64,000 nucleotides of DNA, from assembly GCA_036375715.1 (NCBI GenBank), contig DASVBS010000053.1:148873-212872 (forward strand). The letters are read 5' to 3'. The notes under the pieces are model-generated. The model did no database searches, was not told the origin of the DNA, and worked only from the letters and a program-made list of their open reading frames with translations. Position 1 is the first letter of the stretch. Each line of letters starts with the position of its first letter. Below are positions 32,238 through 63,990 of this stretch, in pieces. Position numbers and translations under genes: made by a program. This DNA comes from Longimicrobiaceae bacterium (GTDB lineage Bacteria; Gemmatimonadota; Gemmatimonadetes; Longimicrobiales; Longimicrobiaceae).

Positions 32238-32296
32238 GGATTGCGAATTACGAATCACGAATTGCGTTAAACCGTAATTCGTAATTCGTAATTCCC
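32238..32296. repeat. heptamer-array hairpin (AATTACG-type arms, 6-nt loop)
   Basis: gggattgcgaattacgaatcacgaattgcg-ttaaac-cgtaattcgtaattcgtaattccc. Same heptamer family as the element at 37861..38060. Confidence 0.5.
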
Positions 32297-32413
32297 TAGC
32301 AGCGCCCTCCGCGCGGTCCGCTTTCCCGCTATTTCTGTTCCCGCCTCCGGGAGAACCACCGCGGCGCCAGCGGGTACATCAGCAATCGCGAGCTCTGGCC
32401 TCGCGATTGCTGA

Positions 32414-34762
32414 ATGCCGGGAGGAGATGGTCCTCCCCTTTGCGTGGTGATCGACTTGGAAGGACTCCTCGACAAGATCCGGCAGCGCGCCGAGCAGATC
32501 TGGCGCAGCGTGCGTGCGGAGCTCGCCGCCGCCAGCCGGGATCGCAAGCGTGCGCTGGGACTTCTCGCCTTCGCGGCGGTGGGCCTGGCCTCGAGCAGCG
32601 CCGGGGTCGCGCTCGGTGCCTGGTCGCAGGCCTGTGCGGGCGGATGTCCGACGGCGGAGCAGGTGGCCGAATTGGCTCCGCAGGAGGCGTCGGTCGTCCT
32701 CGACGCCGGCGGCGCGACGCTGGGCCTCCTGTACCGTGAACGCCGCCAGCTCGTGGAGCTGGAGACCCTTCCGCGCCACGTGCCGCTGGCCTTCGTGGCG
32801 GTGGAGGATCGCCGCTTCTTCGAGCACGGCGGGGTGGACGTCGTGCGCTTCCTCGCCGCCGTGCGTGACAACCTCTTCGGCGGGTGGGGCGGACCCGGCG
32901 GCAGCACGATCACCATGCAGCTCGCGCGCAACCTGTTTCCGCAGCAGCTCCCCATTCGCGAGAAGTCGCTGCGCCGCAAGCTCGCTGAGATCCGGCTCGC
33001 GCGGGAGATGGAGAAGCGCTTCTCCAAGGAGCGCATCCTGGAGCTGTACCTGAACCACATCTACCTTGGCAGCGGCGCCTACGGCGTGGAAGCCGCGGCC
33101 CGTACCTACTTCGGCAAGCCTGCCGCGCAGCTCACCGTCGCCGAAGCCGCCACCCTTGCGGCCCTTCCCAAGGCGCCGAGCTTCTACGACCCGCGACGCA
33201 ATCCCGAGGCGGCGCGCAACCGCCGCAACCTCGTGCTGCGCGAGATGGCGGAGACCGGGGTGATCACCGAGGAGGAGGCGGAGACACTTCGCCGGTTGCC
33301 GCTTGTGCTGGCTCCCCCGCGCGGCCTGGAGCGAGCACCGTACGTGGTGGAGCTCGTCCGACGAGAGCTGGAGGACCGCTTCGGGGAGCTGCTATACACC
33401 GGGGGGCTCCGCATCTACACGACCATCGACTCGGCGCTGCAGGCGGAGGCGGAGGCCGCCCTCGAGGATCACCTGCGCGAGATCGAATCGGGCGCCTACG
33501 GTCCATACCGCCACCAGACATACGAGGATTTCGTCGAGGAGGCGGCGGACCAGGAGCGAGTGGCACAGACCCCTTACCTACAGGGCGTCGTGGTGGTCCT
33601 CGACCCGACGACCGGTGCCGTTCGCGCCCTGGTCGGTGGTCGAGACTTCGAGCACTCGCAGTTCAACCGTGCCACGCAGGCACTCCGGCAACCCGGGTCC
33701 GCCTTCAAGCCCTTCGTCTACGCCGCCGCCATCGAGAAGGGGCGCTCGCCGTTGTCGCTCGTGCACGACGTACCCATCTCGGTGAGACAACCCGATGGCA
33801 CCTACTGGTCGCCGAAGAACTACGACGGCACGATCGGCGGCACGATGACGATGCGCGAAGCGCTGCGTCAGTCCAGGAACCTGGCCACGATCCGGCTGGG
33901 CCAGGAGGTGGGGATGACCGCGGTGCGAAACGTCGCTCGTCGTGCGGGTTTGGAGACGCCGATCCCGGATTACCCATCGGTCTACATCGGCGCCGCGGCG
34001 GTGCATCCGATCGACCTGGTGGCCGCCTACGGAACCTTTGCGAACGCGGGATTGCGGGTGTCGCCGCGCTTCATCCGCCGCATCGAGGACCGCAATGGCG
34101 AGGTGCTGTGGGAGCCTACCTCCGCTCCGACCCCCGCTCTTCCCCCCGGCCTGGCCTGGATCGTCACGGACATGCTCCGCGAAGTGGTCGATCGGGGGAC
34201 CGGCTACAACGTTCGCAACCCGGCGGTCGGGAACATTCCGTATGACATTCCGGTCGCCGGGAAGACGGGCACGACCAACTCCAACACCGATGTCTGGTTC
34301 ATCGGCTACACCCCCGATCTGCTCGCCGGAGTCTGGCTCGGATTCGACGAGCCGAAGACCATCACCTCGGGGGCGACCGGAGGTGGATTCGCCGTTCCGG
34401 TGTGGGCACGCGTTGTGCGCAAGTACTATGAGAATCACGAGGTTCCGCGTCCCTGGGAACGGCCGTCCGGGGTGATCGTTCGGGACATCAGCACGCTCAC
34501 CGGTCGGCCGGTTACCGAGGATTGTCCGTTCGCGGTGAGCACCCGGCCAGACTTCTTCCTGGCTTCGAGCGCTCCCGAACCAGGGTGTGGGTCGCCGGAG
34601 GAGTTCGTGGATCCCACTCCCTGGCTGCCAGGGCGGCCGGTGGTGCCAGGACAGCCTCGGGTCCCGCGTCCGGAGGATTTCATCGATGAGTCAGAACCGG
34701 GCGACGGGGCAGAAGCGGACGACGATGCGGAAACCGACCCGAGCGGGGAGGTGGTCCCCTAG
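32414..34762 (+). CDS. class A penicillin-binding protein (PBP1A-type; GT51 + transpeptidase)
   Basis: EDRRFFEHGG, GGSTITMQL, RKLAE, ELYLNHIYLG, plus transpeptidase motifs SAFKP, SRN and KTGTT. Confidence 0.85.
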   Translation: MPGGDGPPLCVVIDLEGLLDKIRQRAEQIWRSVRAELAAASRDRKRALGLLAFAAVGLASSSAGVALGAWSQACAGGCPTAEQVAELAPQEASVVLDAGGATLGLLYRERRQLVELETLPRHVPLAFVAVEDRRFFEHGGVDVVRFLAAVRDNLFGGWGGPGGSTITMQLARNLFPQQLPIREKSLRRKLAEIRLAREMEKRFSKERILELYLNHIYLGSGAYGVEAAARTYFGKPAAQLTVAEAATLAALPKAPSFYDPRRNPEAARNRRNLVLREMAETGVITEEEAETLRRLPLVLAPPRGLERAPYVVELVRRELEDRFGELLYTGGLRIYTTIDSALQAEAEAALEDHLREIESGAYGPYRHQTYEDFVEEAADQERVAQTPYLQGVVVVLDPTTGAVRALVGGRDFEHSQFNRATQALRQPGSAFKPFVYAAAIEKGRSPLSLVHDVPISVRQPDGTYWSPKNYDGTIGGTMTMREALRQSRNLATIRLGQEVGMTAVRNVARRAGLETPIPDYPSVYIGAAAVHPIDLVAAYGTFANAGLRVSPRFIRRIEDRNGEVLWEPTSAPTPALPPGLAWIVTDMLREVVDRGTGYNVRNPAVGNIPYDIPVAGKTGTTNSNTDVWFIGYTPDLLAGVWLGFDEPKTITSGATGGGFAVPVWARVVRKYYENHEVPRPWERPSGVIVRDISTLTGRPVTEDCPFAVSTRPDFFLASSAPEPGCGSPEEFVDPTPWLPGRPVVPGQPRVPRPEDFIDESEPGDGAEADDDAETDPSGEVVP

Positions 34763-34774
34763 CCAACACTGAGC

Positions 34775-37165
34775 ATGGCCGACAAGCCGACGGTTGGACG
34801 AGTGACCCTGTGGACGATGGCCGCCCTGAGCACGATCGGGGCGGCCATCTTTGCCTGGATCTGGTTCGCGCCGTGCTGGCTTGGCGGGTGTGCGCCGCTG
34901 GAGGATCTGGCGGAGTTCCAGGCTGAGGGGTCCGAGCTACTCGACATCAACGGCCAGCCGTTTGCCACCCTTGCCACCGTGAACCGCCGCATCGTCTCGA
35001 TAGACTCCCTTCCGCCTTACCTCCCCCAAGCCTTCATCGCCATCGAGGATCAGCGCTTCTACGACCACGGCGGCATCGATTTCCGCCGGCTCGTGGGGGC
35101 ACTCCTCAGCAACCTGCGGGCGGGCGGGGTGCAGGAGGGGGGTAGCACCATCACGCAGCAGCTCGCGCGGAATCTCTTCCCGGAGTGGCTGCCGTACACC
35201 GAGCGCAACCTGCGACGCAAGATCCTGGAGGCGCGCGTCGCCCGCCAGATCGAGCGCCAGTTCACCAAGGACAAGATCCTCGAGCTGTACCTGAACCATA
35301 TCTACCTCGGGAACGGTGCATACGGCGTGGAGGCGGCCGCCCGGGCCTACTTCGACAAGTCGGCCGCGGACCTCTCGCTGGAGGAGGCGGCGACCCTCGC
35401 CGCGCTTCCCGCCTCCCCCTCCCGCCTGGATCCAACCCGCAACCCGGAAGGCGCGCGCACCCGGCGAGACCTGGTGCTGTCGCGCATGGTCGAAGCCGGA
35501 TTCATCACAGACGAGGAGGCACTCGAGGCCAGCGACAACGAGATCGTCCTGGATCCGGGGGACGGGGATGGGACGGACGGCCCGTCGAGCTCGTACTTCG
35601 TGGAGGCGGTGCGGCAGGAGATGGAGCAGATCGTCGGGTCGCGCCTCTACTCCTCGGGCCTGACGATCCACACCACCCTGGATCTGCAGGCCCAGCGCGC
35701 CGCGGAGGAAGAGCTCAGGCGGCAGCTCGAGGCGATCGAATCCGGACGCTACGGTACCTACCGGCACCCGACCTACGCGGCCGCACGGGACACGATGCCG
35801 TCCGGGGAAACGCCGTATCTGCAGGGCGCTGTGGTGATCATGGACGTCGGGACCGGCGAGGTCCGGGCAATGGTCGGCGGCCGCGACTTCGGGGACTCCA
35901 AGTTCAACCGTGCCACGCAGGCGCTGCGCCAGGCAGGCTCGGCCTTCAAGCCGTTCGTCTTCCTGGCGGCGCTTCGACGCTTCGGAACGCCGGCGCACGT
36001 CGTCCAGGATGTCCCGGTGCGCATTCAGCTCACCGCGAATCGCGTATGGGAGCCGCGGAATTACACCGGGGGCTACGAGGGGCCGATGCTGCTGCGCGAC
36101 GCTCTGGCCCGCTCGAAGAACTCGGTCGCCGCGCAGCTCGGCCAGCAAGTGGGGATCGAGACGGTGGCCAGCCTCGCGCACGACCTGGGCATATCCACGG
36201 AAATTCCGGTGTTCCCCGCGACCGCGCTCGGCGCGGCCGAAGTGCGGCCGATCGAGCTGGTGAATGCCTACGCCGCCTTCGCCAACGGAGGACGCCGGGT
36301 CGAGCCCCACTACATCCGCCGCATCGTCGACCGACACGGGCGCACGGTCTGGGAAGCCTCGCCGCGGAGCCAGCAGGTTCTGGATCCCGCCCAGGCCTTC
36401 GTCCTCACGTCGATGCTGCAGGACGTGGTGGATCGCGGCACGGGCACGGCAGTACGAGCGGTCGGATTCCGAGGCGCCGCCGCCGGAAAGACGGGCACTA
36501 CCAACGATGCCGCGGACGTCTGGTTCGTCGGCTACACGCCCGAGCTGGTCGCCGGCGTCTGGATCGGGCTGGACCGGCGGCAGACCATCGTGCGGGGTGC
36601 GTCCGGAGGAACCCTCGCGGCTCCGGTCTGGGGTCGGTTGATGCGACGCGTGTACGCGGACAGGCCGCTCCCTCAAGGCTGGAGTCCTCCTCCGGGCGTA
36701 CGGACCGCCGAAGTGCTCCGAGCAACAGGCGAGGTGGAGAACCCTCAGTGCCCGACCGGCGGAGAGACGTACACGGAGTACTTCCTCTCCACGCCACCGG
36801 CCCCGCGCTACTGCGACAACGGCTATCCCAGCTACTCGCTCGACCGGGACACCCTCTGGGGAGACGAGGAGTGGGGCTCCGAGCTCCCTCCGCTGGACAC
36901 GATCTACGCGGACAGCGGGATCGACTGGCCGGAGCTGGAGGCCCTGCGCCGCCGCGCCGCAGATTCGCTGTCCTATCCGTTGCCGCCCGGAGCGGACACG
37001 CTGGGAGTGGAGGTCACCCGGGAGCTACCGCCGGCGGTCGACCCCGTAACGGGCGAAAAGGAGGGGGACGAAGCCGGCGAGCTCGAGCCGGATACGGGGG
37101 AGGAACGCGAGGTGCTCCCCCGTGAGCCTCCGCGGGTGCTGGGCGTACCGGTCCCGCGCGAGTAA
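34775..37165 (+). CDS. class A penicillin-binding protein, tandem paralog
   Basis: EDQRFYDHGG, GGSTITQQL, ELYLNHIYLG, SAFKP, SKN, KTGTT. Acidic C-terminal tail. Confidence 0.85.
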   Translation: MADKPTVGRVTLWTMAALSTIGAAIFAWIWFAPCWLGGCAPLEDLAEFQAEGSELLDINGQPFATLATVNRRIVSIDSLPPYLPQAFIAIEDQRFYDHGGIDFRRLVGALLSNLRAGGVQEGGSTITQQLARNLFPEWLPYTERNLRRKILEARVARQIERQFTKDKILELYLNHIYLGNGAYGVEAAARAYFDKSAADLSLEEAATLAALPASPSRLDPTRNPEGARTRRDLVLSRMVEAGFITDEEALEASDNEIVLDPGDGDGTDGPSSSYFVEAVRQEMEQIVGSRLYSSGLTIHTTLDLQAQRAAEEELRRQLEAIESGRYGTYRHPTYAAARDTMPSGETPYLQGAVVIMDVGTGEVRAMVGGRDFGDSKFNRATQALRQAGSAFKPFVFLAALRRFGTPAHVVQDVPVRIQLTANRVWEPRNYTGGYEGPMLLRDALARSKNSVAAQLGQQVGIETVASLAHDLGISTEIPVFPATALGAAEVRPIELVNAYAAFANGGRRVEPHYIRRIVDRHGRTVWEASPRSQQVLDPAQAFVLTSMLQDVVDRGTGTAVRAVGFRGAAAGKTGTTNDAADVWFVGYTPELVAGVWIGLDRRQTIVRGASGGTLAAPVWGRLMRRVYADRPLPQGWSPPPGVRTAEVLRATGEVENPQCPTGGETYTEYFLSTPPAPRYCDNGYPSYSLDRDTLWGDEEWGSELPPLDTIYADSGIDWPELEALRRRAADSLSYPLPPGADTLGVEVTRELPPAVDPVTGEKEGDEAGELEPDTGEEREVLPREPPRVLGVPVPRE

Positions 37166-37301
37166 GCGCCGATCCGCTTGTGGCGAGCCTGGATGTAGCG
37201 GTGGCTACGGAACTTGCGTAGAACAGCGCGGTACAGAGGGGTTCGACCGTGGGCCAGCGGGAACGGCCCACGATTCATTTCTCGCTTCAGCGCTCCGAAC
37301 T

Positions 37302-37853
37302 ATGATGCGAAAGGCCCGTCGTTCTCTGGTCCGACTCGTTACGATCGCGGCCGTTGCGATCCCCGGGGCGCTGGGCGCCCAGGATGCTCCCGCGGCTCCA
37401 CAGGAGCTCACGCCGGAGGTACAGGGCTGGCTGGCGGAGCTTCAGCAGCTCCACGTGCAGCTCACCCAGCTGCAGGAGAAGGCGCTGCAGGATCCGCAAC
37501 TCGCCGCGCAACGCGACTCGCTCGGCGCTCACATCCGGGCCGAAATGGAAACGATCGACCCGGAGCTCCCGACGAAGATGAGCCGGATCCCCCAGATGGA
37601 AGCGGAGGCCGCCGCTGCGGAAGCGCAGAAGGACGAGGCCAAGCTCGCGGCGCTCCGCACCGAAGCGCAGCAGATCGAGCAGCAGTTCCTGCGCGCTCAG
37701 CAACAGGCGCTCCAGAAGCCCGAGCTTGCCGCCGAGCTGAACGCCTTCCAGACCGCCCTGGAAGCCCGCATTCTCGAGACAGACCCGGAGGCCCCACGCC
37801 TCATGGCGCGTTTCCAGGAGCTGGAGGAGAAGCTGGCGAAGGCGGCGCAGTGA
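37302..37853 (+). CDS. secreted coiled-coil protein with LTxxQ motifs (Spy/CpxP-like periplasmic protein)
   Basis: Signal peptide, LTPEVQ / LTQLQE motifs, Gln/Ala/Glu-rich helices. Confidence 0.45.
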   Translation: MMRKARRSLVRLVTIAAVAIPGALGAQDAPAAPQELTPEVQGWLAELQQLHVQLTQLQEKALQDPQLAAQRDSLGAHIRAEMETIDPELPTKMSRIPQMEAEAAAAEAQKDEAKLAALRTEAQQIEQQFLRAQQQALQKPELAAELNAFQTALEARILETDPEAPRLMARFQELEEKLAKAAQ

Positions 37854-37860
37854 CCGGGCC

Positions 37861-38060
37861 GGAATTACGAATTACGGATTACGGATTTTGTCTTCCTGAG
37901 CGGAACCGGGTAGGGGCGGAGCGAAGGATCGCATGCCCGTAACAATGCAGGAGATACTTCGCTTCGCTCGGACGATAGGGCTGGGTGGTCGAGACGAGAG
38001 GGGTCGGCAACCAGATGGCGGGGGCGGCAAGTAATTCGTAATCCGTAATTCGTAATTTCC
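37861..38060. repeat. heptamer-array inverted-repeat element (AATTACG/GATTACG arms of about 28 bp flanking a 142-bp core)
   Basis: Left arm ggaattacgaattacggattacggatt; right arm agtaattcgtaatccgtaattcgtaatttcc. Fills the gap between convergent genes. Confidence 0.55.
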
Positions 38061-38095
38061 CCCGCTCGACCCCACCTCTTTGTCCGCAACCTGTT

Positions 38096-40033
38096 TTACC
38101 GGTATCCTGCCGCTTGCAGGGTAAACAGCTCCGCGTAACGGCCGCCGAGCGCGAGTAGCTCGGCGTGGCTGCCTTCTTCCAGCACGCGCCCGTCCTCGAG
38201 CACCAGGATCCGGTCGGCCATGCGCACGGTCGAGAACCGGTGCGAGATGAGGATGGCGATCTTCCCGGCTGTCAGGTCGGCGAAGCGTTGGAAGACTTCG
38301 TACTCCGCCCGCGCGTCGAGGGCGGCCGTCGGCTCGTCCAGGATGAGCACCTGCGCGTCGCGCATGTAGGCGCGCGCCAGCGCCACCTTCTGCCACTGTC
38401 CTCCGGAGAGGTCCACACCCCCCTCGAAGCGCCGCCCGAGCATCGTCTCGTATCGCTCCGGCAGCGATTCCACCACCCCCGCCGCCAGCGACCGGTCTGC
38501 AGCGTCGCGTATCCGTGATCTGGCGGTCTCGGGCGCCTCGGTGAGCGCGGAGATCCTGCCTGCCGCGATGTTTTCCGCCGCCCTCATGTCGTAGCGAACG
38601 AAGTCCTGGAAGATCACCCCGACCTCGTGGTGGTATTCCTCCGGATCGTACTCCGAGAGCGGATAGCCGTCCAGCAGAATCTCTCCCCGAGTCGGTTCGT
38701 ACAGCCGCAGCAGCAGCTTGATCAGCGTGGTCTTGCCCGCGCCGTTCTCCCCCACCAACGCCAGCTTTCCCGAGGGTGGAATTCGCAGATTGATCCCTCG
38801 CAACACCCAGGACGGGTCGTCGTCGGGTGGCAGCGGTTCGCTCGCCGCAACGCTCTCCCCCTCCCTGCCGTTCTCGGACGGGCCCGCGCCAGGCGGGTAG
38901 CGGAACCAGACGTCACGGAACTCGAAGCCGATCCGGATCGGCCGCGGCACCGGTCGCGGGTTCGGAGGCCGACGAATGGTCGGTTGCATGGAGAAGAAGA
39001 CGAAGAGATCGTCCAGATAGAGCGCCTGCTCGTAGAGCTCGCTGGTGGTGAGAAGGGTGCGCTGCACCAAATCGCGGGACCGCGAGAACGTACCGCTCAG
39101 CAGGGTGAGATCTCCGACGCTGAGCGCGCCCCGTACGGTGCGGTAGACGATGATCCCGAAGGCGGCGTAGTAACCGAGGGTGGAGAGCATCGACAAGCCG
39201 GTTCCGACGGCGTTGCGACGGATCGCGAGCGCGCGGTTGGCAACATAGTATTCGTCCGCGAGCCGGGCGTACTCGTCTATGAGATACCGGGAGAGCCCGA
39301 AGAGCTTGATCTCCTTCGCCGTGGCGTCGGACGCGGCGATGAATCGGTAGTAGTCCAGCTTGCGCCGCTCAGGGGTCCACTGGTAGAGGAGCGAGTACCC
39401 CAGAGCGGCGTAGTGCGTCTCCCCGAGGAAGGCGGGAATCAAGGCGGCCAGCAACAGCAGGAAGAGCAGCGGGCTGAAGGCCAGGAGGGTACCGACGAGC
39501 GTCGCCAGGGTCACCAGGTCCTGGGCCAGCCCGAACAGCCTCGTCAGCAGAGCGAGGCGACCGACCGTCTGCCGACGGGCCCGTTCGAGCCGGTCGTAGA
39601 AGACCGGGTCCTCGAAGTGCTTCAGATCGAGCGTGGCGGCGTGCTCCATCAGGCGCACGCTCATTCGATTGGAGAAGAGGTCGCCCAGCAGCGACTCCAG
39701 CAGCGTCGAGCTGCGGGCCGCTACCTCTCCCACCACTACGATCCCCAGCTCGATCAGGACCAGGGCCGTCAGGTAGCTCCAGCGCGGCTCCCCCGTCTGC
39801 ACGTCCAGCACGATGGCATCCACCAGCAGCTTCCCCACCCACAGACTGGCCACCGGCACGAAGGCGCGGATCAACCGCAGGACGGCGATGCCGATCAGGT
39901 AGCCGCGATGAGTCTCCCAGATCAGCCGGATGAACGGGGGAACGTTGCGCATGGCGCGCAGCCGCTCCTTCAGGTTCGGGGGCGGCGTGTTCGTCCGGCG
40001 TGCTCGGGGAGGACGGGATCCATGCGTAGCCAT
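38096..40033 (-). CDS. ABC exporter, fused permease/ATPase (MsbA/MdlB-like)
   Basis: Six TM helices; Walker A GENGAGKTT, signature LSGGQWQK, Walker B ILILDE. An insertion of about 30 aa precedes the Walker A. Confidence 0.8.
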   Translation of the reverse strand: MATHGSRPPRARRTNTPPPNLKERLRAMRNVPPFIRLIWETHRGYLIGIAVLRLIRAFVPVASLWVGKLLVDAIVLDVQTGEPRWSYLTALVLIELGIVVVGEVAARSSTLLESLLGDLFSNRMSVRLMEHAATLDLKHFEDPVFYDRLERARRQTVGRLALLTRLFGLAQDLVTLATLVGTLLAFSPLLFLLLLAALIPAFLGETHYAALGYSLLYQWTPERRKLDYYRFIAASDATAKEIKLFGLSRYLIDEYARLADEYYVANRALAIRRNAVGTGLSMLSTLGYYAAFGIIVYRTVRGALSVGDLTLLSGTFSRSRDLVQRTLLTTSELYEQALYLDDLFVFFSMQPTIRRPPNPRPVPRPIRIGFEFRDVWFRYPPGAGPSENGREGESVAASEPLPPDDDPSWVLRGINLRIPPSGKLALVGENGAGKTTLIKLLLRLYEPTRGEILLDGYPLSEYDPEEYHHEVGVIFQDFVRYDMRAAENIAAGRISALTEAPETARSRIRDAADRSLAAGVVESLPERYETMLGRRFEGGVDLSGGQWQKVALARAYMRDAQVLILDEPTAALDARAEYEVFQRFADLTAGKIAILISHRFSTVRMADRILVLEDGRVLEEGSHAELLALGGRYAELFTLQAAGYR

Positions 40034-40337
40034 GGAGACATCGTAGCCGTCGATCCCGCGCGCCGCGAGGGAGCGGAAGGCGGGGACGAGCGTTCCGTCC
40101 GCCTTGTAGGGGAATCCACCACAACAGGTGGGGAGAAATACGACTGTCGGCCCGGAAAGCCCCGTCTATATTTGTGGTATTCCCCCTCTTGCGGCGGCGC
40201 CGGAGCGTGCTTGCCGCGGTCTGGCGCGGGTATCCGCCGCGGGATATAATGCGCGTGCTCCGCGCCCGGCTTCTGAATGTCGCAATGACCGCGCGCGGTC
40301 GCAGCCTTTTCTTTCCGGACACCGAGCCTTGAACGTC

Positions 40338-41450
40338 ATGACGTCACGTGTGGACCTATCGCGGGCGCTGACCGACGCGCAGCTCCGCTCCGGCGCTGGC
40401 CGGGGAGCGTGGCGGAGGATCCGTGGAACCTTCGTCCCGCACTGTACCCGCTGGGCGCCGACTCTGGCCCTGGCGCTGTCGCTCTCCGCCTGCGGTGGAG
40501 CCGAACGCTTTCCGCAGACGTCACTCGATCCGGCGTCAGACATGGCCGTCGCTATCGACCGGCTGCAGGATCTGACGATCTATCTCGCGTTCGGTGTCGG
40601 TCTCTCGGTCTTCCTCATCCTGACCTACATCCTCATCCACTTCCGCTACAAGCCGGGAGACCCGCAGCCCAAGCAGGTTCACGGGAACACTCGCCTGGAG
40701 CTGGCGTGGACGCTGATACCCGCGGTGCTCATCGCCATCATCGCGGTGCCGACGGTGAGGACGATCTTCGCTACCCAGGCCGAGGCTCCCGAGGGGGCGC
40801 TGGAGGTGGAGGTATACGGCTACCAGTGGTGGTGGGAGTTCCGCTATCCGCTCCCCAACGGCGACACCGTGGTTACCGCGAACGAGGTCCATGTGCCGGT
40901 CGGCACCCCGGTCGAGTTGAAGATGACCTCGCGCGACGTCATCCACTCCTTCTGGATCCCCCAGATGGGGGGCAAGCGGGACGTTATCCCGGGGCGCGTG
41001 AACCGCATCATCTTCACCCCGCTCGAGCCGGGCGTCTACCTGGGCCAGTGCGCGGAGTTCTGCGGTGAGTCGCACGCGCTGATGAAGATGCGCTTGATCG
41101 CCCACGAGCCGGAGGAGTTCGCCGCCTGGCTCGAGAACGAGGCTCGTCCGGCGGTCGTCCCGACGGACTCGGCAGTGCTGGTCGGCCAGCAACTCGTCAC
41201 CGGCGGCGTCTGCGCCGGCTGCCACACCATCCGCGGCACCTCGGCCCAGTTCGGGCGTTTGGCTCCCGATCTCACGCACGTCGCGCGGCGGATGACGATT
41301 GCGGGGGGAGTACTGGAAAACAATGCGGCCAACCTGCACCGCTGGATCAACAATCCGCCCGCGGTCAAGCCGGGAGCGAAGATGCCGCCCCCCGGGCTGA
41401 GTGAGCAGGAACTCCGCTACGTCGTCGCCTATCTGCAGACGCTTTACTGA
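40338..41450 (+). CDS. ctaC: cytochrome c oxidase subunit II with fused C-terminal cytochrome c domain (caa3-type)
   Basis: CuA site HSF…CAEFCGESH…M and a C-terminal CAGCH heme motif. Lipobox LSACGG. Confidence 0.85.
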   Translation: MTSRVDLSRALTDAQLRSGAGRGAWRRIRGTFVPHCTRWAPTLALALSLSACGGAERFPQTSLDPASDMAVAIDRLQDLTIYLAFGVGLSVFLILTYILIHFRYKPGDPQPKQVHGNTRLELAWTLIPAVLIAIIAVPTVRTIFATQAEAPEGALEVEVYGYQWWWEFRYPLPNGDTVVTANEVHVPVGTPVELKMTSRDVIHSFWIPQMGGKRDVIPGRVNRIIFTPLEPGVYLGQCAEFCGESHALMKMRLIAHEPEEFAAWLENEARPAVVPTDSAVLVGQQLVTGGVCAGCHTIRGTSAQFGRLAPDLTHVARRMTIAGGVLENNAANLHRWINNPPAVKPGAKMPPPGLSEQELRYVVAYLQTLY

Positions 41451-41459
41451 GGAGTCGTA

Positions 41460-43373
41460 ATGGGAGCGACCACCGTCACGGCAATTCCGGTCCCGACGAA
41501 GGCGTCGGCAAAGTCCGGGATCTGGAGCTGGATCACGACCGTCGATCACAAGCGGATCGGCATCCTGTACTTCTGGACCTCCTTCTGCTTCTTCCTGGTG
41601 GGAGGCCTGGAAGCACTGCTCGTCCGCACGCAGCTGATTGTGCCGGAGAACGACTTCCTGACGGCGGACTTCTACAACCAGATGTTCACCATGCACGCCG
41701 TCACCATGGTGTTCCTGGCACTGATGCCGCTGACGGCCGCGTTCTTCAACTACGTCGTACCGCTGCAGATCGGCGCGCGCGACGTCGCCTTCCCGCGGCT
41801 CAACGCGCTGTCCTACTGGATCTACCTGCTGGGCGGCCTGTTTTCCACGGTGCCCATCTTCTTCGGGCAATTTCCCAATGCGGGCTGGTTCGCTTACGCC
41901 AACCTGACCACACCGCAGTTCTCCACCGGGCTGAACATCGACTTCTACGTGCTCGGCCTGCAGGTGCTCGGCATCTCGTCGATCATCTCGTCGATCAACT
42001 TCATCGTGACGATCCTGAACCTGCGCGCGCCGGGGATGCGGCTGATGCGCATGCCGATCTTCACGTGGATGACGTTGATCACCGCGGTCCTCATCGCCAC
42101 CGCCATGGCGGTGCTGACGATTGCGGTCACCGAGCTGATGTTCGACCGCTTCTTCGGCACGAACTTCTACAACGTGGCGAAGGGCGGCGACCCGGTCCTG
42201 TGGCAGCACCTCTTCTGGATGTTCGGGCACCCCGAGGTGTACATCCTGATTCTGCCGATCTTCGGCATGATCTCCGAGGTGCTCCCCACCTTCGCGCGCA
42301 AGCCGCTCTTCGGCTACAACGTGATGGTCTTCTCGGGGATCCTGATCGGCTGGCTTGGCTGGGGCGTGTGGAGCCACCACATGTTCGCCACCGGCCTCGG
42401 CCCCATCGCCGATGCCTTCTTCGCGATGGGCACGATGCTGATCGCGATCCCCACGGGGATCAAGATCTTCAACTGGCTGGCAACGCTGTGGGGAGGGTCC
42501 ATTCGCTTCACCACCGCCATGCTGTTCGGAACCGCCTTCATCGTGACGTTCACGATCGGCGGCCTCTCCGGGGTGATGCATGCGGTGGCTCCGGCCGACC
42601 TGCAGCAGACCGACACGTACTTCGTGGTGGCCCACATCCACTACGTCTTCTTCGGCGGAACGGTGATGGGACTGTGGGCGGGGATCTACTACTGGTTCCC
42701 GAAGATGTTCGGTCGCCTGCTCGACGAGAAGCTCGGCGTCGTGCACTTCTGGCTCACCTTCATCGGGATGAACCTGACCTTCTTCCCGATGCACTTCCTG
42801 GGGCTGCACGGGATGCCGCGGAGAACCTTCACGTACGCCGACGGCCTCGGCTTCAACGGGATGAACATGCTGGCAACGATCGGATCCTATCTGATCGGCG
42901 CGGCGACGCTCCTCTTCGCCTACAACCTGATCCGTTCCGTGCGGCGTGGGCGGCTGGCCGGCAACAACCCCTGGGGTGCGGCGACGCTCGAGTGGCAGAC
43001 GTCTTCTCCGCCGCCCGAGTACAACTTCGCCGAGATCCCGGTGGTCCGCAGCCGCATGCCGCTCTGGGAGGATGATCCGGTGCTCAAGGCAGGTATCCCG
43101 CACGGGCGCCACCAGGAGGACACCGGGGCGGTCACCCTCGCCGGCCAGGACGTCAGCGAGCTGGAGTATCCGGACGACGAGAGCAAGATGTCGGCGCACG
43201 ACCTGGGGATTCACCTCCCCCCGCCGTCGATCTATCCGATCGTGCTCGCGCTCTGCATCACCATCTTCTTCAGTGGATTCATGATCCACTGGGGCGTCGC
43301 GGTGGCCGCTGCCTTCGCCACCGCGCTGACAATCTTTGCGATGGCGTTCGAGCCCGGGCATAGCGGGCACTGA
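41460..43373 (+). CDS. ctaD: cytochrome c oxidase subunit I
   Basis: 637 aa, 12+ TM helices, canonical His ligands (WFFGHPEVY-type, HHMF…). Confidence 0.9.
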   Translation: MGATTVTAIPVPTKASAKSGIWSWITTVDHKRIGILYFWTSFCFFLVGGLEALLVRTQLIVPENDFLTADFYNQMFTMHAVTMVFLALMPLTAAFFNYVVPLQIGARDVAFPRLNALSYWIYLLGGLFSTVPIFFGQFPNAGWFAYANLTTPQFSTGLNIDFYVLGLQVLGISSIISSINFIVTILNLRAPGMRLMRMPIFTWMTLITAVLIATAMAVLTIAVTELMFDRFFGTNFYNVAKGGDPVLWQHLFWMFGHPEVYILILPIFGMISEVLPTFARKPLFGYNVMVFSGILIGWLGWGVWSHHMFATGLGPIADAFFAMGTMLIAIPTGIKIFNWLATLWGGSIRFTTAMLFGTAFIVTFTIGGLSGVMHAVAPADLQQTDTYFVVAHIHYVFFGGTVMGLWAGIYYWFPKMFGRLLDEKLGVVHFWLTFIGMNLTFFPMHFLGLHGMPRRTFTYADGLGFNGMNMLATIGSYLIGAATLLFAYNLIRSVRRGRLAGNNPWGAATLEWQTSSPPPEYNFAEIPVVRSRMPLWEDDPVLKAGIPHGRHQEDTGAVTLAGQDVSELEYPDDESKMSAHDLGIHLPPPSIYPIVLALCITIFFSGFMIHWGVAVAAAFATALTIFAMAFEPGHSGH

Positions 43374-43380
43374 GGAGGAG

Positions 43381-43502
43381 GGGGTTATCAGTTATCCGTT
43401 GTCCGTTATCCGTTTGGACCGGTCGTCGGATCTTGAGCCTCGAGGAAGCGGCAAAGGATCGTCCTGGGCCGACGGATAACGCATAGCGGATAGCGGATAA
43501 CC
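43381..43502. repeat. heptamer-array inverted-repeat element (TTATCCG-type arms around a 58-bp core)
   Basis: gggttatcagttatccgttgtccgttatccgtt … cggataacgcatagcggatagcggataaccc. Begins 8 nt after the ctaD stop. Confidence 0.55.
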
Positions 43503-43559
43503 CGTTGCCGTAGTCAGACACCGAGTATTCATTCTCTGTACGACCAGCAAGCCAACATC

Positions 43560-44195
43560 GTGAACCATTCCGCCGCACACGCCGCCGATCCGGCACATGT
43601 CGACACCTCGACCGGTGTCGACAGCCGCAAGATGGCGTTCTGGACCTTCATCGGTTCGGAATGCCTCCTGTTCGGCTCGCTGATTGCCACTTACATGGCG
43701 TACAAGGGGGACAGCCTTACGGGGCCGTACCCACACGACACGGTGCTCCCGAGCGGAGAGGTGGTCCAGGGGGTGCTCGACATCCCACTCACCTCCATCA
43801 GCACCGCCGTCCTGCTGTTCAGCAGCCTCTTCATGGTGTTGGGGCTCGCGGCGGTACAGCGCGGCGACCGCAAGCTGTCTACCGTGTGGCTGGGCATGGT
43901 GGCCCTGTTCGGAGCGATCTTCCTGGGCTTCCAGACGTACGAGTTCACCCACTTCTATCACGCGGGACTCACGCTGACGTCGAACCTCTTCGGGTCGACC
44001 TTCTACACGCTGACAGGGTTCCACGGAGCGCACGTCTTCGCCGGCGTCATCTACATGACGACCATGACGGTGATGGCGGCAGCCGGTAAGCTCGGGCCGG
44101 AAAAGTCGCTGAACGTCGAGATCGCAGGCCTCTACTGGCACTTCGTAGACGTGGTCTGGATCGTGATCTTCCCCCTCGTATACCTGATTCCGTAG
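43560..44195 (+). CDS. ctaE: cytochrome c oxidase subunit III
   Basis: 211 aa, multi-TM, conserved subunit III helices. Confidence 0.85.
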   Translation: MNHSAAHAADPAHVDTSTGVDSRKMAFWTFIGSECLLFGSLIATYMAYKGDSLTGPYPHDTVLPSGEVVQGVLDIPLTSISTAVLLFSSLFMVLGLAAVQRGDRKLSTVWLGMVALFGAIFLGFQTYEFTHFYHAGLTLTSNLFGSTFYTLTGFHGAHVFAGVIYMTTMTVMAAAGKLGPEKSLNVEIAGLYWHFVDVVWIVIFPLVYLIP

Positions 44196-44202
44196 AGGCC
44201 GG

Positions 44203-44532
44203 ATGAGCAGCGAAACGCGCGAAATCATGCATGACCAGCACTCGCATCCGGTGCACGGCACGAGGACGTACTGGACCATCGGCGCGATCCTGTTCGTCGT
44301 CACCGCGGCCGAGATCTTCGCCTACTACATCGAGAATCAGCTCGGTCCCATGGCGGTTCCGACGATTCTGATTCTCTCCGCGGCGAAGTTCGCGCTGGTC
44401 GTGATGTTCTACATGCACCTGAAGTACGACAGCAAGGTCTTCACGGGCATCTTCCTGTTCCCGTTCGCGCTGGCGACGCTCGTGATCGTCTCGCTGACCC
44501 TGCTGTACCACCTGCTGCATCCGTTGCGGTAA
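44203..44532 (+). CDS. ctaF: cytochrome c oxidase subunit IV (caa3-type small subunit)
   Basis: 109 aa with three TM helices, directly after ctaE. Confidence 0.6.
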   Translation: MSSETREIMHDQHSHPVHGTRTYWTIGAILFVVTAAEIFAYYIENQLGPMAVPTILILSAAKFALVVMFYMHLKYDSKVFTGIFLFPFALATLVIVSLTLLYHLLHPLR

Positions 44533-50444: not shown

Positions 50445-52517
50445 TTGATAATGAATCGTCCAACCAACCGCCTGGCGGGGGAAACCAGCCCCTACCTGCT
50501 CCAGCACCAGCACAACCCCGTCGACTGGTACCCGTGGGGTGACGAGGCGTTTGAACGCGCCCGCGCGGAGGATCGCCCCGTCCTCCTGTCGATCGGCTAC
50601 TCCTCCTGTCACTGGTGCCACGTGATGGAGAGAGAATCGTTCGAGGACGAGAATACGGCGGCGATCATGAACGATCGCTTCATCAACATCAAGGTAGACC
50701 GAGAGGAGCGGCCGGACGTCGACTCTCTCTACATGGCGGCCGTGCAGCGGATGACGGGGCATGGCGGCTGGCCCATGACCGTGTTCCTCACCCCTGAAGG
50801 GGAGCCGTTTTACGGCGGCACCTACTTTCCCCCGGAGCCCCGACACGGCCTGCCCTCCTTCAAGCAGGTCCTGCTCGCGGTAAGCGAGGCCTGGAACGAG
50901 CGACGAGACGAGGTGCATCGCAGCGCCGGCGACCTCACGCAGATGCTGCGCGACGCGGCCGCCGTGCAGCCGCCCCCCGGAACGCTCGATGCCGGCCTGC
51001 TCGATCGAGCGGCCAGCGAGGTCATCCAGCGTCACGATGCGCGCCACGGAGGTTTCGGCGCAGCGCCCAAGTTTCCGCAGCCCCTGATCCTGGAGTTCCT
51101 CCTCCGTCATGCGCATCGCACCGGACGCGACGACGTGCTTCCGCCCGTGGTGCACACCCTCCGCTGGATGGCCCGAGGTGGGATCTACGATCACGTCGGC
51201 GGCGGCTTTCACCGCTACAGTGTGGACGCGCGGTGGCTCGTCCCCCACTTCGAGAAGATGCTGTACGACAACGCGCTGCTGGCTCGGACCTTCCTGAGCG
51301 CTCACCTCGCCACGGGCGAGGAGGAATTCCGCTTCGTCGCGCAGGATACGCTCGATTACGTGCTGCGTGACATGACGTCACCTGAGGGTGGCTTCTATTC
51401 CGCCAGCGACGCCGATAGCGAAGGGGAGGAAGGCAAGTTCTACTTGTGGACGCCGGAGGAGATCGACGCGGTGCTGGGCGCCACCGACGGAGAGCGGTTA
51501 CGCCGGGCCTTCGGCGTGACGTCCCATGGCAATTTCGAAGGGAAGAACATCCTCAACCTCCTTCCCCGGGGCGACGTTCCCTTGGCGGAGTGGCACGCCG
51601 CTGCTGCCGAGGGAAGGGCCACAATGATGCCGGTTCGGCAGAAGATGCTCGAGGCCCGAGCCCGTCGCGTTTCTCCTGGCCTCGACGACAAGGTGGTCAC
51701 CGCCTGGAACGCGATGATGCTGCGCTCCCTGGCCGAGGCCGGTCGCTTCTTGCAGCGCAAGGAATATTTGGACGCGGCCGTACGCTGTGCCGAGTTCCTG
51801 CAGGACCGGCTCTGGCAGGATGGGCGCCTGCTGCGCACCTACCGCGCAGGGGTAGCGAAGATCCCTGCTTTCCTCGACGACCATGCCCTCCTCGTCGATG
51901 CCCTGGTCGCCCTCTACCAGGCGACCTTCGATCCCCGCTGGATTGCCTTCGCGCGGACGCTCGCCGACGCGATGCTGGAGCTCTTCTGGAGCAAGGAGGA
52001 ACGCACCTTCTACGACACCGCGGCGGATACCAGCACACTCCTCGTACGGCCCCGGGAGCTGAACGACTCGGCGACTCCCTCAGGCACCTCGGCGGCCATT
52101 ACGGCGCTTCTCCGGCTGGGGGCGCTGACGGGAGACGGGCGCTTCGCGCAGGTCGTGGAAGCGGTCTTGCCGCCGCTGGGCGGCGTGGCCGAGCGATTCC
52201 CGCAGGCCTTCGGGGAGCTACTCACGGCGATCGACATGCACGTGAACGGAATCGACGAGGTAGCTATCGTGGGGCGCCCCGGAGCGAACGATACGGCAGC
52301 ATTGCTCGAGGTTGTCCGGAACGGCTACCGACCCGCCACCGTGGTCGCCTTCCGCCCGGTGGACGAACAGGGCCCGGCGCATGTCCCGGAGATCCCCCTG
52401 CTCGAAGGGCGCGAGCTGGTCGATGGAGCGGCGGCCGCCTACGTGTGCCGAAGGTTCGCCTGCGAGCGTCCGGTCACGCAGCCAGCGGAGCTGCTCGAGG
52501 CGCTCGATAGAACCTGA
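50445..52517 (+). CDS. thioredoxin-domain protein YyaL/DUF255 family (thioredoxin-like + six-hairpin glycosidase-like)
   Basis: …[40 protein letters not shown]… is the canonical DUF255 N-terminus. Confidence 0.8.
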
Positions 52518-59204: not shown

Positions 59205-60053
59205 ATGGAACGGACGACGAGATCGGGTACCCCCGAGCGCCGCGACCATTCACCACCGGGACGTCTGCGCCGCATCTTCCACGATCATCCCACGGGCGTC
59301 TGGTCGCTCATCGGCATCGTGGTGCTCTTCTTCGGCCTCTTCGTCGCCACTACAGTGTGGGCCGTGAACGAGCGCTTCAAGCGCGACATCACGCGGATCG
59401 CCTTTACCCACGACACCCGGTCTCTGCGATTCCTCGCCGCGCGGGAGTCCGAGGGGCTGGCCGAGATGAGCGAGACCTTGGCCAACCTCGAGCAGCGAGC
59501 GGCGACGCTAGCCCCGGCGAATCGGCCCTACCTGGTGGTCTCGATCGAGGACCGCAGGGTCTGGTACCTACAGGGCAACGACACCCTCTTCACCGCCCCC
59601 GTCGCCGTGGGCTCGGGCGCCACCCTGGTGGTGGGCGGCGAGACGAAGCGCTTCCAGACGCCCCGCGGAATGATGAAAATCACCCGCAAGGAGCTGGATC
59701 CCGTGTGGGTGCCGCCGAACTGGCATTACATCGAGATCGCCCGGAAGGAGGGCCTCGAGGTGGTGGACATGAGCCACGCCGCCCCTGATGCGCTGGCTGG
59801 ATTTCCGCCTGGTGAGGAGCCGATCCGTGACGGGAAGATCTTCATTCCGCCCTACGGCAGCCCGCAACGGCGGCACAAGGGCGTGCTGGGTGTGGCCAAG
59901 CTCGAGATGTACGATGGCTACTACTTCCACGGCACGCAGAACGAAGCGTCCGTGGGCACCGCCGCCAGCCACGGCTGCATCCGCATGCTGAAGGACGACA
60001 TCCTCTGGATGTACGAGAACGTTCCGGTGGGGACGGAGGTGTATGTCTATTGA
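59205..60053 (+). CDS. L,D-transpeptidase (YkuD domain)
   Basis: N-terminal TM and the catalytic SHGCIRM motif. Confidence 0.75.
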   Translation: MERTTRSGTPERRDHSPPGRLRRIFHDHPTGVWSLIGIVVLFFGLFVATTVWAVNERFKRDITRIAFTHDTRSLRFLAARESEGLAEMSETLANLEQRAATLAPANRPYLVVSIEDRRVWYLQGNDTLFTAPVAVGSGATLVVGGETKRFQTPRGMMKITRKELDPVWVPPNWHYIEIARKEGLEVVDMSHAAPDALAGFPPGEEPIRDGKIFIPPYGSPQRRHKGVLGVAKLEMYDGYYFHGTQNEASVGTAASHGCIRMLKDDILWMYENVPVGTEVYVY

Positions 60054-60229
60054 GAAGTTAGAAGCTAGAAGCTAGCAGCTAGAATGCTTTGGTTGGGATT
60101 CCAGGGGGGAAGAGAGGTCTAGCGGACGCGTATCACGCGCTCGAGCCGTCCAGGAGTAATGCCCAATCTTGCAGATCCACTCACAAGGAATCCAGAAGGC
60201 GAGAAAATTCTAGCTTCTAACTTCTCAAC
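60054..60229. repeat. heptamer-array inverted-repeat element (GAAGCTA-type arms around a 122-bp core)
   Basis: gaagttagaagctagaagctagcagctagaat … attctagcttctaacttctcaac. Abuts or overlaps the stop codons of two convergent genes. Confidence 0.55.
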
Positions 60230-60516
60230 TCAATCTCCGGCTTCTCCGGGTGCCTCCTGTACAAAACCACCGTCCGCCCGATCGTCTGCACGTGCTCAAC
60301 TTCCGGGAGGCGGGCGGCGATCTCGGCGCCAGCCTCGGCGGCGGAAAGGGGGGCCGCGGACTGGACCTTGATCTTCAGCAGCTCGCGCGAGTTGAACGCC
60401 TCCAGGATCGACTGAAGGACCGCCTCGGTGAGGCCGTCCTTCCCCAGGTGCAGGATCGGCTTCAGCGGGTGCGCCAGCGATCGAAGCTGCGCCCGTTGCT
60501 TCGGGGTCAAGGTCAT
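60217..60516 (-). CDS. yhbY: ribosome assembly RNA-binding protein YhbY (CRM domain)
   Basis: 99 aa; LTPKQRAQLRSLAHPLKPILHLGKDGLTEAV is typical of YhbY. Confidence 0.75.
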   Translation of the reverse strand: MTLTPKQRAQLRSLAHPLKPILHLGKDGLTEAVLQSILEAFNSRELLKIKVQSAAPLSAAEAGAEIAARLPEVEHVQTIGRTVVLYRRHPEKPEIELRS

Positions 60517-63184: not shown

Positions 63185-63315
63185 AGGCGCCTGACCGTGG
63201 AACGACGTGGTCAGGGGCAGGCGGCATAGGGATTGCCGCCGAGCGTGAACTCTGACTTCACGCGCAATTGACGCGGAGAGCCGTCTCCGCTTGACATTCA
63301 CCGGAGGAGGACACG

Positions 63316-63828
63316 ATGCGGAAGGGGAGCGCCCTCGCGCGATGGACGGCAGGGATGATGATGGTTGCGTTGACCGCCGCCTGTGGCGGGGGGGATGCGC
63401 CGGAAACTGGCGGCGATGCCAGCGCTCCTGCCGGGGCACCGTCCGAAGCGCCTGGTGCTGCCGCAACTGGAGGTGACGCGACCGCCGCGCCCTCGGCGGA
63501 CACGGGTGCCGCCGCGGCGCCGGCAGGGGGTGATGCCCAACTGGTTTCGCAGGGGCAGCAGATCTACGCGAGCTCGGTCTGCGTGAGTTGCCATGGTGCG
63601 AACGCCGCCGGCACGCCACTGGCCCCCAATCTCACGGACGACGAGTGGCTGTGGGTCGATACGGCGGGCGACATGCAGGCGCAGGTGGCCGAGATCATCC
63701 GCACCGGGGTCTCGCAGCCGAAGGATCCGGCGCACGTCGCCCCGATGCCTCCGTACGGGGGCGGGGCGCCCCTGGACGACTCGCAGGTCCAGGCGCTCGC
63801 GGCGTACGTGGTTTCGCTGAGTGAGTAG
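63316..63828 (+). CDS. class I c-type cytochrome lipoprotein (paralog of 7272..7775)
   Basis: CVSCHG heme motif, lipobox LTAACGG. The conserved C-terminal half (…MPPYGGG…AAYV…) is alignable to the protein at 7272..7775. Confidence 0.7.
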   Translation: MRKGSALARWTAGMMMVALTAACGGGDAPETGGDASAPAGAPSEAPGAAATGGDATAAPSADTGAAAAPAGGDAQLVSQGQQIYASSVCVSCHGANAAGTPLAPNLTDDEWLWVDTAGDMQAQVAEIIRTGVSQPKDPAHVAPMPPYGGGAPLDDSQVQALAAYVVSLSE

Positions 63829-63848
63829 GGGAAGGCGGAAACAGAGGG

Positions 63849-63990
63849 AGTTAGGAGCTAGAAGCTAGAAGCTGGAATGCTTCCCTGCGGGCTTCCCTGC
63901 CGGGGGAGGGTCTCTGCAGCGGGCAGGCGGTGCCACCCTTCCGCGGGGAAGCTCGAAAACGTGACTTCTAGCTTCTAGCTTCTAGCTTCT
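63849..63990. repeat. heptamer-array inverted-repeat element (GAAGCTA-type arms around an 86-bp hairpin-forming core)
   Basis: agttaggagctagaagctagaagctggaat … acttctagcttctagcttctagcttctcc. Lies 20 nt after the cytochrome c stop. Confidence 0.55.

Follow-up and report, generated by a model that had tools for sequence, protein, structure and literature searches.

What do tandem AT-rich heptamers do when they stand as facing pairs in the spacers of a GC-rich bacterial genome? The question is raised by a 64,000-nucleotide (nt) stretch of a Longimicrobiaceae bacterium (contig DASVBS010000053.1, positions 148,873 to 212,872 of the forward strand; henceforth the window), for which an original prediction had described five loci of one design: a short heptamer array, a core, and a second array that is the imperfect reverse complement of the first. 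All five loci (henceforth E1 to E5) read as described, and Tandem Repeats Finder, a period scan and a ranking of inverted repeats agree on them. We propose, with a probability of roughly 0.55 and on the strength of comparative sequence analysis, that E2-E5 are sense-strand RNA stem-loops at gene ends or between cistrons, lengthened by 7-nt slippage in both arms.

Five inverted heptamer pairs and the genes around them

The window holds five pairs of period-7 arrays in inverted orientation, belonging to three heptamer families (AATTACG, TTATCCG and GAAGCTA). The observation is confirmed as real and far beyond chance: with up to two mismatches tolerated, there are 10, 9 and 5 matches to the two-unit 14-mers of the respective families, against 0.03-0.17 expected, and all of these matches are confined to E1-E5. 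By Tandem Repeats Finder, period-7 arrays of 2.7-4.6 copies flank both sides of every element, while our own scan of periods 5-9 in the window returned qualifying arrays for period 7 only, and at E1-E5 only. The best inverted repeats in the entire window are these same five elements, and all ten arms are intergenic or overlap merely a stop codon. The arms had been put at 40-45% GC in a 70% GC genome; their AT-richness stands, but the figures do not, since the arms range from 31 to 53% and the window has 67%. The cores had been described as GC-rich; those of E2-E5 have 56-70% GC, and the 6-nt TTAAAC of E1 is a loop and not GC-rich. The parts of the elements are as follows:

E1 whole, 32238-32296: AATTACG family, 6-nt loop
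E1 left arm, 32238-32266, no strand assigned: about four units of (G/A)ATT(A/G/C)CG
E1 loop, 32267-32272, no strand assigned: TTAAAC
E1 right arm, 32273-32296, no strand assigned: (CGTAATT)x3
E2 whole, 37861-38059: AATTACG family, 143-nt core
E2 left arm, 37861-37887, + strand: AATTACG AATTACG GATTACG GATT
E2 core, 37888-38030, + strand: 143 nt, 63% GC, internal hairpins, no Rfam match
E2 right arm, 38031-38059, + strand: the variant GATTACG mirrored as CGTAATC
E3 whole, 43382-43503: TTATCCG family, 57-nt core
E3 left arm, 43382-43414, + strand: GTTATC(A/C) units
E3 core, 43415-43471, + strand: 57 nt, 65% GC, inner GGACCGG-type stem partly common to relatives
E3 right arm, 43472-43503, + strand: GGATA(A/G)C units
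E4 whole, 60050-60228: GAAGCTA family, 121-nt core
E4 left arm, 60050-60085, + strand: GAAG(T/C)TA units
E4 core, 60086-60206, + strand: 121 nt, 56% GC, beginning with the variant unit GAATGCTT, also in E5
E4 right arm, 60207-60228, + strand
E5 whole, 63847-63990: GAAGCTA family, 87-nt core
E5 left arm, 63847-63877, + strand: GGAGTTA GGAGCTA GAAGCTA GAAGCT
E5 core, 63878-63964, + strand: 87 nt, 70% GC, largely self-complementary
E5 right arm, 63965-63990, + strand: (CTTCTAG)x3.7

Four of the elements share a position relative to genes, which we assigned by Pfam (18 open reading frames, ORFs) together with contigs of the same species: E2-E5 begin 0-18 nt after stop codons, and three of them (E2, E4 and E5) lie at convergent junctions. 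E2 starts 7 nt past the stop of an ORF (37122-37853, +), and its right arm ends 37 nt from the stop of a convergent ABC transporter gene (38096-40033, -). E3 starts 8 nt past the COX1 stop (41460-43373, +) and ends 56 nt upstream of the COX3 start (43560), which places it inside the cox operon. E4 occupies the entire spacer between the convergent YkuD (+) and YhbY/CRS1-like (60217-60516, -) genes, its arms overlapping both stops: the left arm includes the TGA of the YkuD gene (60051-60053) and the right arm the TAG, as its reverse complement (60217-60219), of the YhbY-like gene, which was called on a same-species contig (L300) and then mapped onto window coordinates. E5 starts 18 nt past the stop of a cytochrome c gene (63316-63828, +); in same-species contigs a 23S-5S rRNA operon of the - strand has its 3' end about 90 nt past E5, outside the window. 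E1 is flanked by two divergent gene starts, those of a glyoxalase gene (31825-32211, -) and of PBP1A (32414-34762, +).

The stems differ in length and perfection. That of E1 has 22 bp with one G·T and one A·C; that of E2 has 27 bp, 25 of them Watson-Crick pairs and two G·T; that of E3 has 32 bp with three G·T and no A·C; and the outer stem of E4 is a perfect 21 bp. The cores of E3-E5 are partly self-complementary beside the arms, so that the stem extends inward; because the E5 core is largely self-complementary, its stem continues through the core and reaches 54 bp when counted on into it. The arm-core junction that the original prediction had noticed in the two GAAGCTA elements is there, as (A/G)GAATGCTT in both E4 and E5, and the remainder of the two cores does not align. 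No direct repeats that could be target-site duplications flank the arms of E1-E5, as had been predicted, and Rfam gave no match in the window at the gathering score or at E <= 1. Stop codons occur in all three + strand frames in at least one arm of each element, which is an automatic outcome of a 7-nt period with a stop triplet and probably of no significance for AT-rich units; because three-frame stops are often expected by chance in AT-rich heptamers, we did not use them as evidence.

Several features of the surroundings deserve mention. Positions 1-32000 of the window are without a heptamer array, all five elements lying in its second half, and adjacent elements use a common heptamer (E1 and E2, 5.6 kb apart; E4 and E5, 3.7 kb apart). 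The glyoxalase gene beside E1 is missing at that position in two relatives (L121 and L125), where an AMP-binding gene is followed by PBP1A; in the window, its stop abuts that of the convergent AMP-binding gene with a spacer of 0 nt. Downstream of E5, the 5S rRNA gene and the 3' end of the 23S rRNA lie on the - strand (window-equivalent 64081-64197 onward; L301:799-1345), and a separate GC hairpin (GAAAGCCGG...CCGGCTTTC) stands between E5 and the 5S gene.

Sense-strand folding and compensatory change of the arms

Folding energies, which had been suggested as a check on the design, bear it out: E1-E5 fold as long hairpins (z = -5.3 to -7.0 against dinucleotide shuffles), with arm helices of 21-32 bp. 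For E2, E3, E4 and E5 the upstream gene lies on the + strand, and this sense strand folds with lower minimum free energy than the - strand (-99.6 vs -73.5, -68.6 vs -51.6, -70.8 vs -65.3 and -88.7 vs -71.3 kcal/mol, respectively) and with more G·U pairs (8 vs 1, 7 vs 1, 7 vs 4 and 5 vs 1). E1 has no strand preference (-28.2 vs -29.8 kcal/mol on the two strands). When the post-stop elements of the window and of its Gemmatimonadota relatives are taken together, the sense strand folds better in 14 of 17 (Wilcoxon p = 0.0017). The mismatches point the same way: read on the sense strand, the transition mismatches in ungapped arm helices number 30 G·T against 8 A·C (binomial p = 0.0005), and counted by element the bias toward G·T is 10 vs 2.

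No T-run follows any of E1-E5. A consensus scan of positions 31000-50999, which covers E1-E3, picked up none of these three and found U-tract terminators at a frequency not above chance (6 found vs 8.3 expected). Among the three roles that the original prediction had considered, the best fit is that of a long stem-loop terminating or attenuating transcription where U-tracts are scarce in the genome, and it is partly supported by the post-stop siting, the plain hairpins of relatives described below, the U-tract scan and the G·U bias.

A major question is whether the pairing of the arms outlasts their sequence. The closest COX1 homologues, 84-87% identical, and the named matches indicate Gemmatimonadota, family Longimicrobiaceae, and the contigs of relatives retain the gene order PBP-PBP-hypothetical-[ABC]-COX2-COX1-COX3-COX4-CtaG. 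The spacer that corresponds to E3 reads as follows:

COX1-COX3 spacer, window and L125: left GTTATCC, right GGATAAC
COX1-COX3 spacer, L126: left GTTATCA, right TGATAAC, with a relic GGATAAC just beyond the right arm
COX1-COX3 spacer, L207: left GTTTTCA, right TGAAAAC
COX1-COX3 spacer, L208: left GTTTTGA and GTTTTCA, right TGAAAAC
COX1-COX3 spacer, L121 and L209: GC hairpin, no arrays
COX1-COX3 spacer, L210: none, COX1 and COX3 abutting

This series shows that the heptamer changes stepwise, with a complementary change in the opposite arm. In an alignment of the COX1-COX3 arms, 93% of cells pair and changes on both sides are found in 7 of 24 pairs; the covariation score of 0.417, against 0.195 in shuffles, was reached by none of 500 shuffles, and shifting the partner by 1-3 columns abolishes the pairing. 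Within the window, variant units are likewise mirrored between the two arms in E2 and in E4. Copy number and unit vary among orthologous sites, relic units persist outside the arms, and the cores are not conserved among orthologues save for a short GC stem beside the arms.

Other sites replace the unit altogether. At the E2-equivalent site of L126 stands an unrelated pair, AGGAGTC / TTCTGAC (GGAGTCA unit), with a consistent G·U in every unit, and three relatives at a greater distance use AATGATC, CGAATGT or GGAACGC at another orthologous site. The COX4-CtaG spacer measures 12 nt in the window, whereas L126 and L207 have heptamer hairpins there, with AATTACG as the unit in L207. Two AATGATC sites within L129 are neighbouring elements that share one heptamer. 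The same contig has inverted heptamer-like arrays (TCGTGCG / ACGCACG, L129:57-134) directly 3' of a tRNA-Leu gene (141-226, -), which give the better fold on the - strand, as would suit an RNA hairpin that follows the gene.

Where arrays are absent, ordinary hairpins are found. L211, which has no arrays, carries plain GC-rich stem-loops directly after the COX2, COX1 and COX4 stops and a canonical hairpin with a U-run, a terminator, at its E2-equivalent site. L125 and L209 have GC hairpins at that site, and L121 likewise has a plain hairpin after the stop. Within the window, too, plain GC hairpins follow CtaG and occupy one further convergent junction. Because plain hairpins stand at the same post-stop spacers in relatives, we regard the heptamer-armed elements as variant post-stop hairpins and not as a separate kind of locus.

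Over shorter times the arrays are constant. Exact look-up of three small window proteins (that of the window COX1 gave no match) led to same-species contigs from several samples, which match the window at 98.6-100% identity. E1 is identical in eight of these contigs, E3 in five and E4 in one, and no copy-number change in the arrays was seen among these strains. The only strain polymorphism inside an arm, 63982 C>T in E5, replaces a G-C pair by G·U on the + strand. The multi-sample relative checked for copy-number polymorphism (P0016) is a species without arrays. On that timescale, then, the arrays are no hypermutable contingency loci; their invariance, which the original prediction had named as a point against its proposals, argues against recent mobility or hypermutability and has no bearing against a structural role. 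Two further observations came from the same contigs. Three independent metagenome contigs (L300, L302 and L304) end inside E5, at window positions 63889 and 63983, probably as assembly breaks from the hairpin or repeat. In the PBP1A gene, a dense cluster of substitutions at 33844-34204, which accounts for 21 of the 25 differences of L307 and 40 of the 44 of L309, suggests a recombination tract.

Weighing the readings of the arms

Each outer stem is built from a 7-nt microsatellite in the 5' arm that pairs with the reverse-complementary array in the 3' arm, and the elements stand where related genomes have ordinary GC-rich post-stop hairpins. According to our proposal, E2, E4 and E5, at the convergent junctions, would act as putative sites of U-tract-independent termination or pausing, while E3, within the cox operon, would be a putative barrier to 3' exonucleases or a processing site for a double-strand RNase. 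The arms would arise and turn over by 7-nt replication slippage, following a general bacterial heptanucleotide bias; the dominance of period seven, the varying copy number and unit at orthologous sites and the relic units outside the arms favour this origin. Their complementarity would be kept by selection on the RNA helix, possibly aided by palindrome-templated repair of the kind known from quasipalindrome mutagenesis. We infer both that transcripts end or are processed at the elements and that slippage generated the arms. E1, in a divergent promoter region, may be a 5'-untranslated-region or promoter-proximal copy of the same structure.

A number of points weigh against this proposal. E1 lies between divergent gene starts, has no strand bias and does not fit a role at 3' ends, and complete termination at E3 would harm the operon that contains it. 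The energy asymmetry is partly compositional, since the + strand has the better fold in shuffled sequences as well, and a transcription-associated C>T bias could also yield the excess of G·T. Repeated units within arms are non-independent observations, and the covariation alignment is a manual one of five array-bearing orthologues, in which repeated units multiply single events. In other phyla, 18 co-directional pairs had no sense-strand preference (10 vs 8, p = 0.34), a test that rested on crude ORF calls; the RNA-level signal is therefore shown for this lineage only. Slippage alone leaves unexplained why heptamers are reused (E1/E2, E4/E5 and AATTACG at another site of L207) and why arms in a 67% GC genome are AT-rich, and the reason for a period of seven is not explained by the stem-loop proposal.

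Could the arms be neutral? If hairpins or palindromes were hot spots of 7-nt slippage and template switching, the arms would be non-functional microsatellite growth tolerated in spacers. We consider this unlikely, though with a real share of the probability. Relatives manage without arms (L121 and L209) or without a spacer (L210, in which COX1 and COX3 abut), the heptamer sequence and copy number are labile, and other phyla are without a strand bias; moreover, the lengths of left and right arms are uncorrelated, at least with the rough arm boundaries used (rho = 0.09, 62 pairs). Neutral growth, however, would not predict that arm complementarity survives the replacement of the unit, nor that mismatches are strongly skewed to the wobble type on the sense strand, and free-running microsatellites are expected to vary, whereas the arrays are invariant in strains that differ elsewhere.

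The sharing of heptamers between neighbours (E1 with E2, E4 with E5, and the pair of AATGATC sites in L129) speaks for a different possibility, in which a trans-acting factor, be it a protein that binds RNA or DNA or antisense pairing of loci with common arms, would recognise the array, or the array would be copied between sites, with same-heptamer elements being co-regulated. The variant unit that E4 and E5 have in common, the return of AATTACG at a non-orthologous site of L207, the viral contigs described below with 12 and at least nine AATTACG arrays (the latter each followed by GGGGAGG) and the dominance of one heptamer per genome elsewhere (GGGAATC in Xanthomonas, PMC4692102; TAACTGA in Beggiatoaceae, PMC4679880) all fit such a system. 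It is nevertheless quite improbable: orthologous sites bear unrelated heptamers (AATTACG against GGAGTCA of L126 at the E2 site; AATGATC, CGAATGT or GGAACGC elsewhere), the arms of a hairpin would sequester each other, and no candidate factor was identified. In a speculative form to which we give equally little weight, the arms would be no passive products of slippage but a family-specific address, the same heptamer being seeded and maintained at many gene ends by a dedicated copying process or a trans-acting reader (an RNA-binding protein, an RNase or antisense pairing of arms between transcripts). If this were true, transcripts with the same arms would be a co-processed set, and the address would explain both the dominance of one or a few heptamers in genomes and phages (AATTACG, TAACTGA, GGGAATC) and their recurrence across phyla.

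A role at the DNA level is very unlikely. The original prediction had raised iteron-like or protein-binding arrays, and such sites, or cruciform-forming ones, might serve replication, nucleoid structure or promoters; the position of E1 in a divergent promoter region and the reported effect of single arrays near Nostoc promoters on LexA/NtcA regulation (bioRxiv 10.1101/2022.06.06.494920) would agree with this. The heptamer, however, differs at one orthologous site while arm complementarity stays, three unrelated units occur in one window, four of the five elements sit at gene ends and not at promoters, strand-asymmetric wobble pairs make no sense for duplex DNA, and no replication gene is nearby.

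Least likely of all is the non-autonomous mobile element also put forward at the outset, a type similar to MITEs (miniature inverted-repeat transposable elements) or REPs (repetitive extragenic palindromes) with microsatellite termini, for although its termini would be inverted, the COX4-CtaG spacer shows presence and absence (12 nt here, an element in both L126 and L207) and E4 and E5 share a junction, there is no target-site duplication, the cores are unrelated despite the same arms, the "empty" orthologous sites bear other hairpins instead of clean excision or insertion boundaries, no transposase was found among the 18 neighbouring ORFs scanned against Pfam, and the elements are unchanged among strains.

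Heptamer arrays elsewhere and known systems

Period seven also dominates outside the window. In 460 kb of Gemmatimonadota DNA we found 24 period-7 arrays, eight of period 4 and none of any other period; in unrelated phyla there were 80 period-7 arrays against at most 16 for any other period, a result that holds with the heptamer selected by the search removed. A three-unit RATTACG search of 185,579 species genomes returned at least 120 stretches, with Cyanobacteria, Bacteroidota, Acidobacteriota, Chloroflexota, Planctomycetota and others among the matches listed; as the cross-phylum set is skewed toward one heptamer, we make no claim that AATTACG is special. Over all fetched DNA, 107 of 384 period-7 arrays had an inverted partner within 400 nt. 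The AATTACG pairs of L001-L120 showed a weak polarity, with AATTACG as the 5' arm in 23 and CGTAATT in 10 (p = 0.035).

Some of these arrays have unusual settings. On viral contig IMGVR_UViG_3300020045_012626 (9.9 kb, 55% GC), 12 AATTACG arrays lie in less than 6 kb (L257:3650-9114), some as hairpin pairs right after stops and some as single arrays abutting ATG, and a 48-nt direct duplication (4179-4263) includes one of them. On viral contig IMGVR_UViG_3300009868_000138 (L244, L252), single (AATTACG)3-5 arrays number at least nine; they all point the same way and run straight into a GGGGAGG-like sequence of Shine-Dalgarno type, a layout that resembles the TAACTGA pattern upstream of start codons. 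In L139 (1790-2040), (GAACCAG)n is nested between inverted outer arrays, whose 13-nt unit, CTGGGGCTGGTTT, returns as its reverse complement about 230 nt downstream. Finally, AATTACG arms surround near-perfect palindromic cores of 11-12-nt tandem units at L109:2890-3055, L109:3945-4095 and L070:1580-1745 (Chitinophaga solisilvae), forming very long hairpins of about -92 to -99 kcal/mol.

How do the elements compare with systems already described? The original prediction held the design to be unlike anything known. It was right about the classes it named. E1-E5 are not a clustered regularly interspaced short palindromic repeat (CRISPR) array, the units being 7 nt, contiguous and in two inverted arrays, compared with repeats of 23-50 nt with unique spacers. 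They are not REPs or bacterial interspersed mosaic elements (BIMEs), which are imperfect palindromes of 20-40 nt conserved in many copies with a GTAG-type head, as the three arm sequences are unrelated and share no consensus (no genome-wide search for the REP-associated tyrosine transposase was made), nor MITEs, as there is no target-site duplication and the E4 and E5 cores do not align. Iterons or operator arrays do not fit either, the unit differing at orthologous sites and no rep-like gene lying among the Pfam-scanned ORFs.

Extragenic palindromes at 3' ends and between cistrons are nonetheless a familiar theme. In Escherichia coli, REP/BIME elements and terminators pause or terminate transcription and shield upstream mRNA from 3' exonucleases. 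E1-E5 resemble these, and intrinsic terminators in general, in being such palindromes; unlike them, they have no REP consensus, no GTAG motif and no U-tract, and their stems are made of microsatellite units. As in an intrinsic terminator, a stem-loop stands directly downstream of a gene in E2-E5, with the U-tract absent. RNase III-type enzymes need a double-stranded RNA helix of about 20 bp or more, and the near-perfect arm helices offer 21-32 bp, or 54 in E5.

The elements do, however, belong to a known class, that of heptanucleotide simple sequence repeat (SSR) arrays, in the paired form found in Xanthomonas, and here the claim of a design unlike anything known fails (PMC4692102). They consist of head-to-tail 7-nt units beyond chance, show a period-7 excess, are intergenic, and vary in unit and copy number at orthologous loci. 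Heptanucleotides are the most abundant class of long SSR in prokaryotes, intergenic and phylogenetically scattered, and have been ascribed to polymerase slippage with a 7-nt preference (Mrazek 2007 via PMC4679880, PMC4692102). The same period-7 dominance is seen here; as relayed by those two papers, the survey treats arrays singly, with inverted pairs, hairpins and Gemmatimonadota not addressed.

Cyanobacteria offer an older parallel. Their STRR sequences (short tandemly repeated repetitive) are reportedly heptamer families scattered in intergenic DNA, and in heterocystous cyanobacteria STRR units on both sides are said to lengthen a helix in RNase P RNA genes. The strict STRR units of Nostocales are CCCCAGT, TTGGTCA and CAACAGT, and their arrays are often much longer and mostly unpaired. 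E1-E5 are not STRRs in this strict sense, having AATTACG, TTATCCG and GAAGCTA units in a Gemmatimonadota host.

A further likeness is to the direct repeats that TAACTGA forms in marine Beggiatoaceae, in Cyanobacteria and in Bacteroidetes (MacGregor 2015, PMC4679880), which in Beggiatoaceae lie just upstream of start codons, with one inverted set among 170 (PMC4679880). The right-arm unit at COX1-COX3 of L126 (8310-8346) is exactly TAACTGA (ACTGATA...), and TAACGGA of E3 is one substitution away; in contrast to direct repeats before starts, our elements are inverted pairs just after stops.

Function, and the reason for seven, have been open since 1990 for heptanucleotide repeats, the commonest long bacterial microsatellites. 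The present lineage offers a clean case, in which the repeats form hairpin stems at gene ends and the arms co-evolve with a sense-strand wobble bias, and it yields a testable hypothesis, that these are RNA 3'-end or intercistronic structures extendable in 7-bp steps. Concrete loci for such tests are the spacers of the cox operon and the region where the cytochrome c gene meets the rRNA operon. The elements matter for annotation as well: they probably interrupt metagenome assemblies, and any terminator predictor that depends on a U-tract misses them.

The closest comparison is with Xanthomonas campestris and X. axonopodis, whose genomes each contain some 185 GGGAATC arrays, including 70-75 as convergent pairs (Rehm et al. 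2015, PMC4692102). Those arrays typically have about four units, are mostly transcribed and have no known function, and their position and type (single or paired) are usually kept between species while length varies (PMC4692102). Common to both systems are tandem heptamers in intergenic DNA, inverted pairs capable of stem-loops and a high-GC host, with five of five elements paired here. In Xanthomonas, one G-rich unit dominates and has been studied for G-quadruplex formation, whereas here the units are AT-rich, every one of them lacks G-tracts, and at least three families occur in 32 kb. New here are the Gemmatimonadota host, the AT-rich version with several families, the plain hairpins at the same spacers in relatives and the strain-level invariance, together with three features not reported for Xanthomonas (PMC4692102): placement just after stops, covariation of the arms by compensatory heptamer change at COX1-COX3, and a sense-strand bias of wobble pairs, G·T over A·C.

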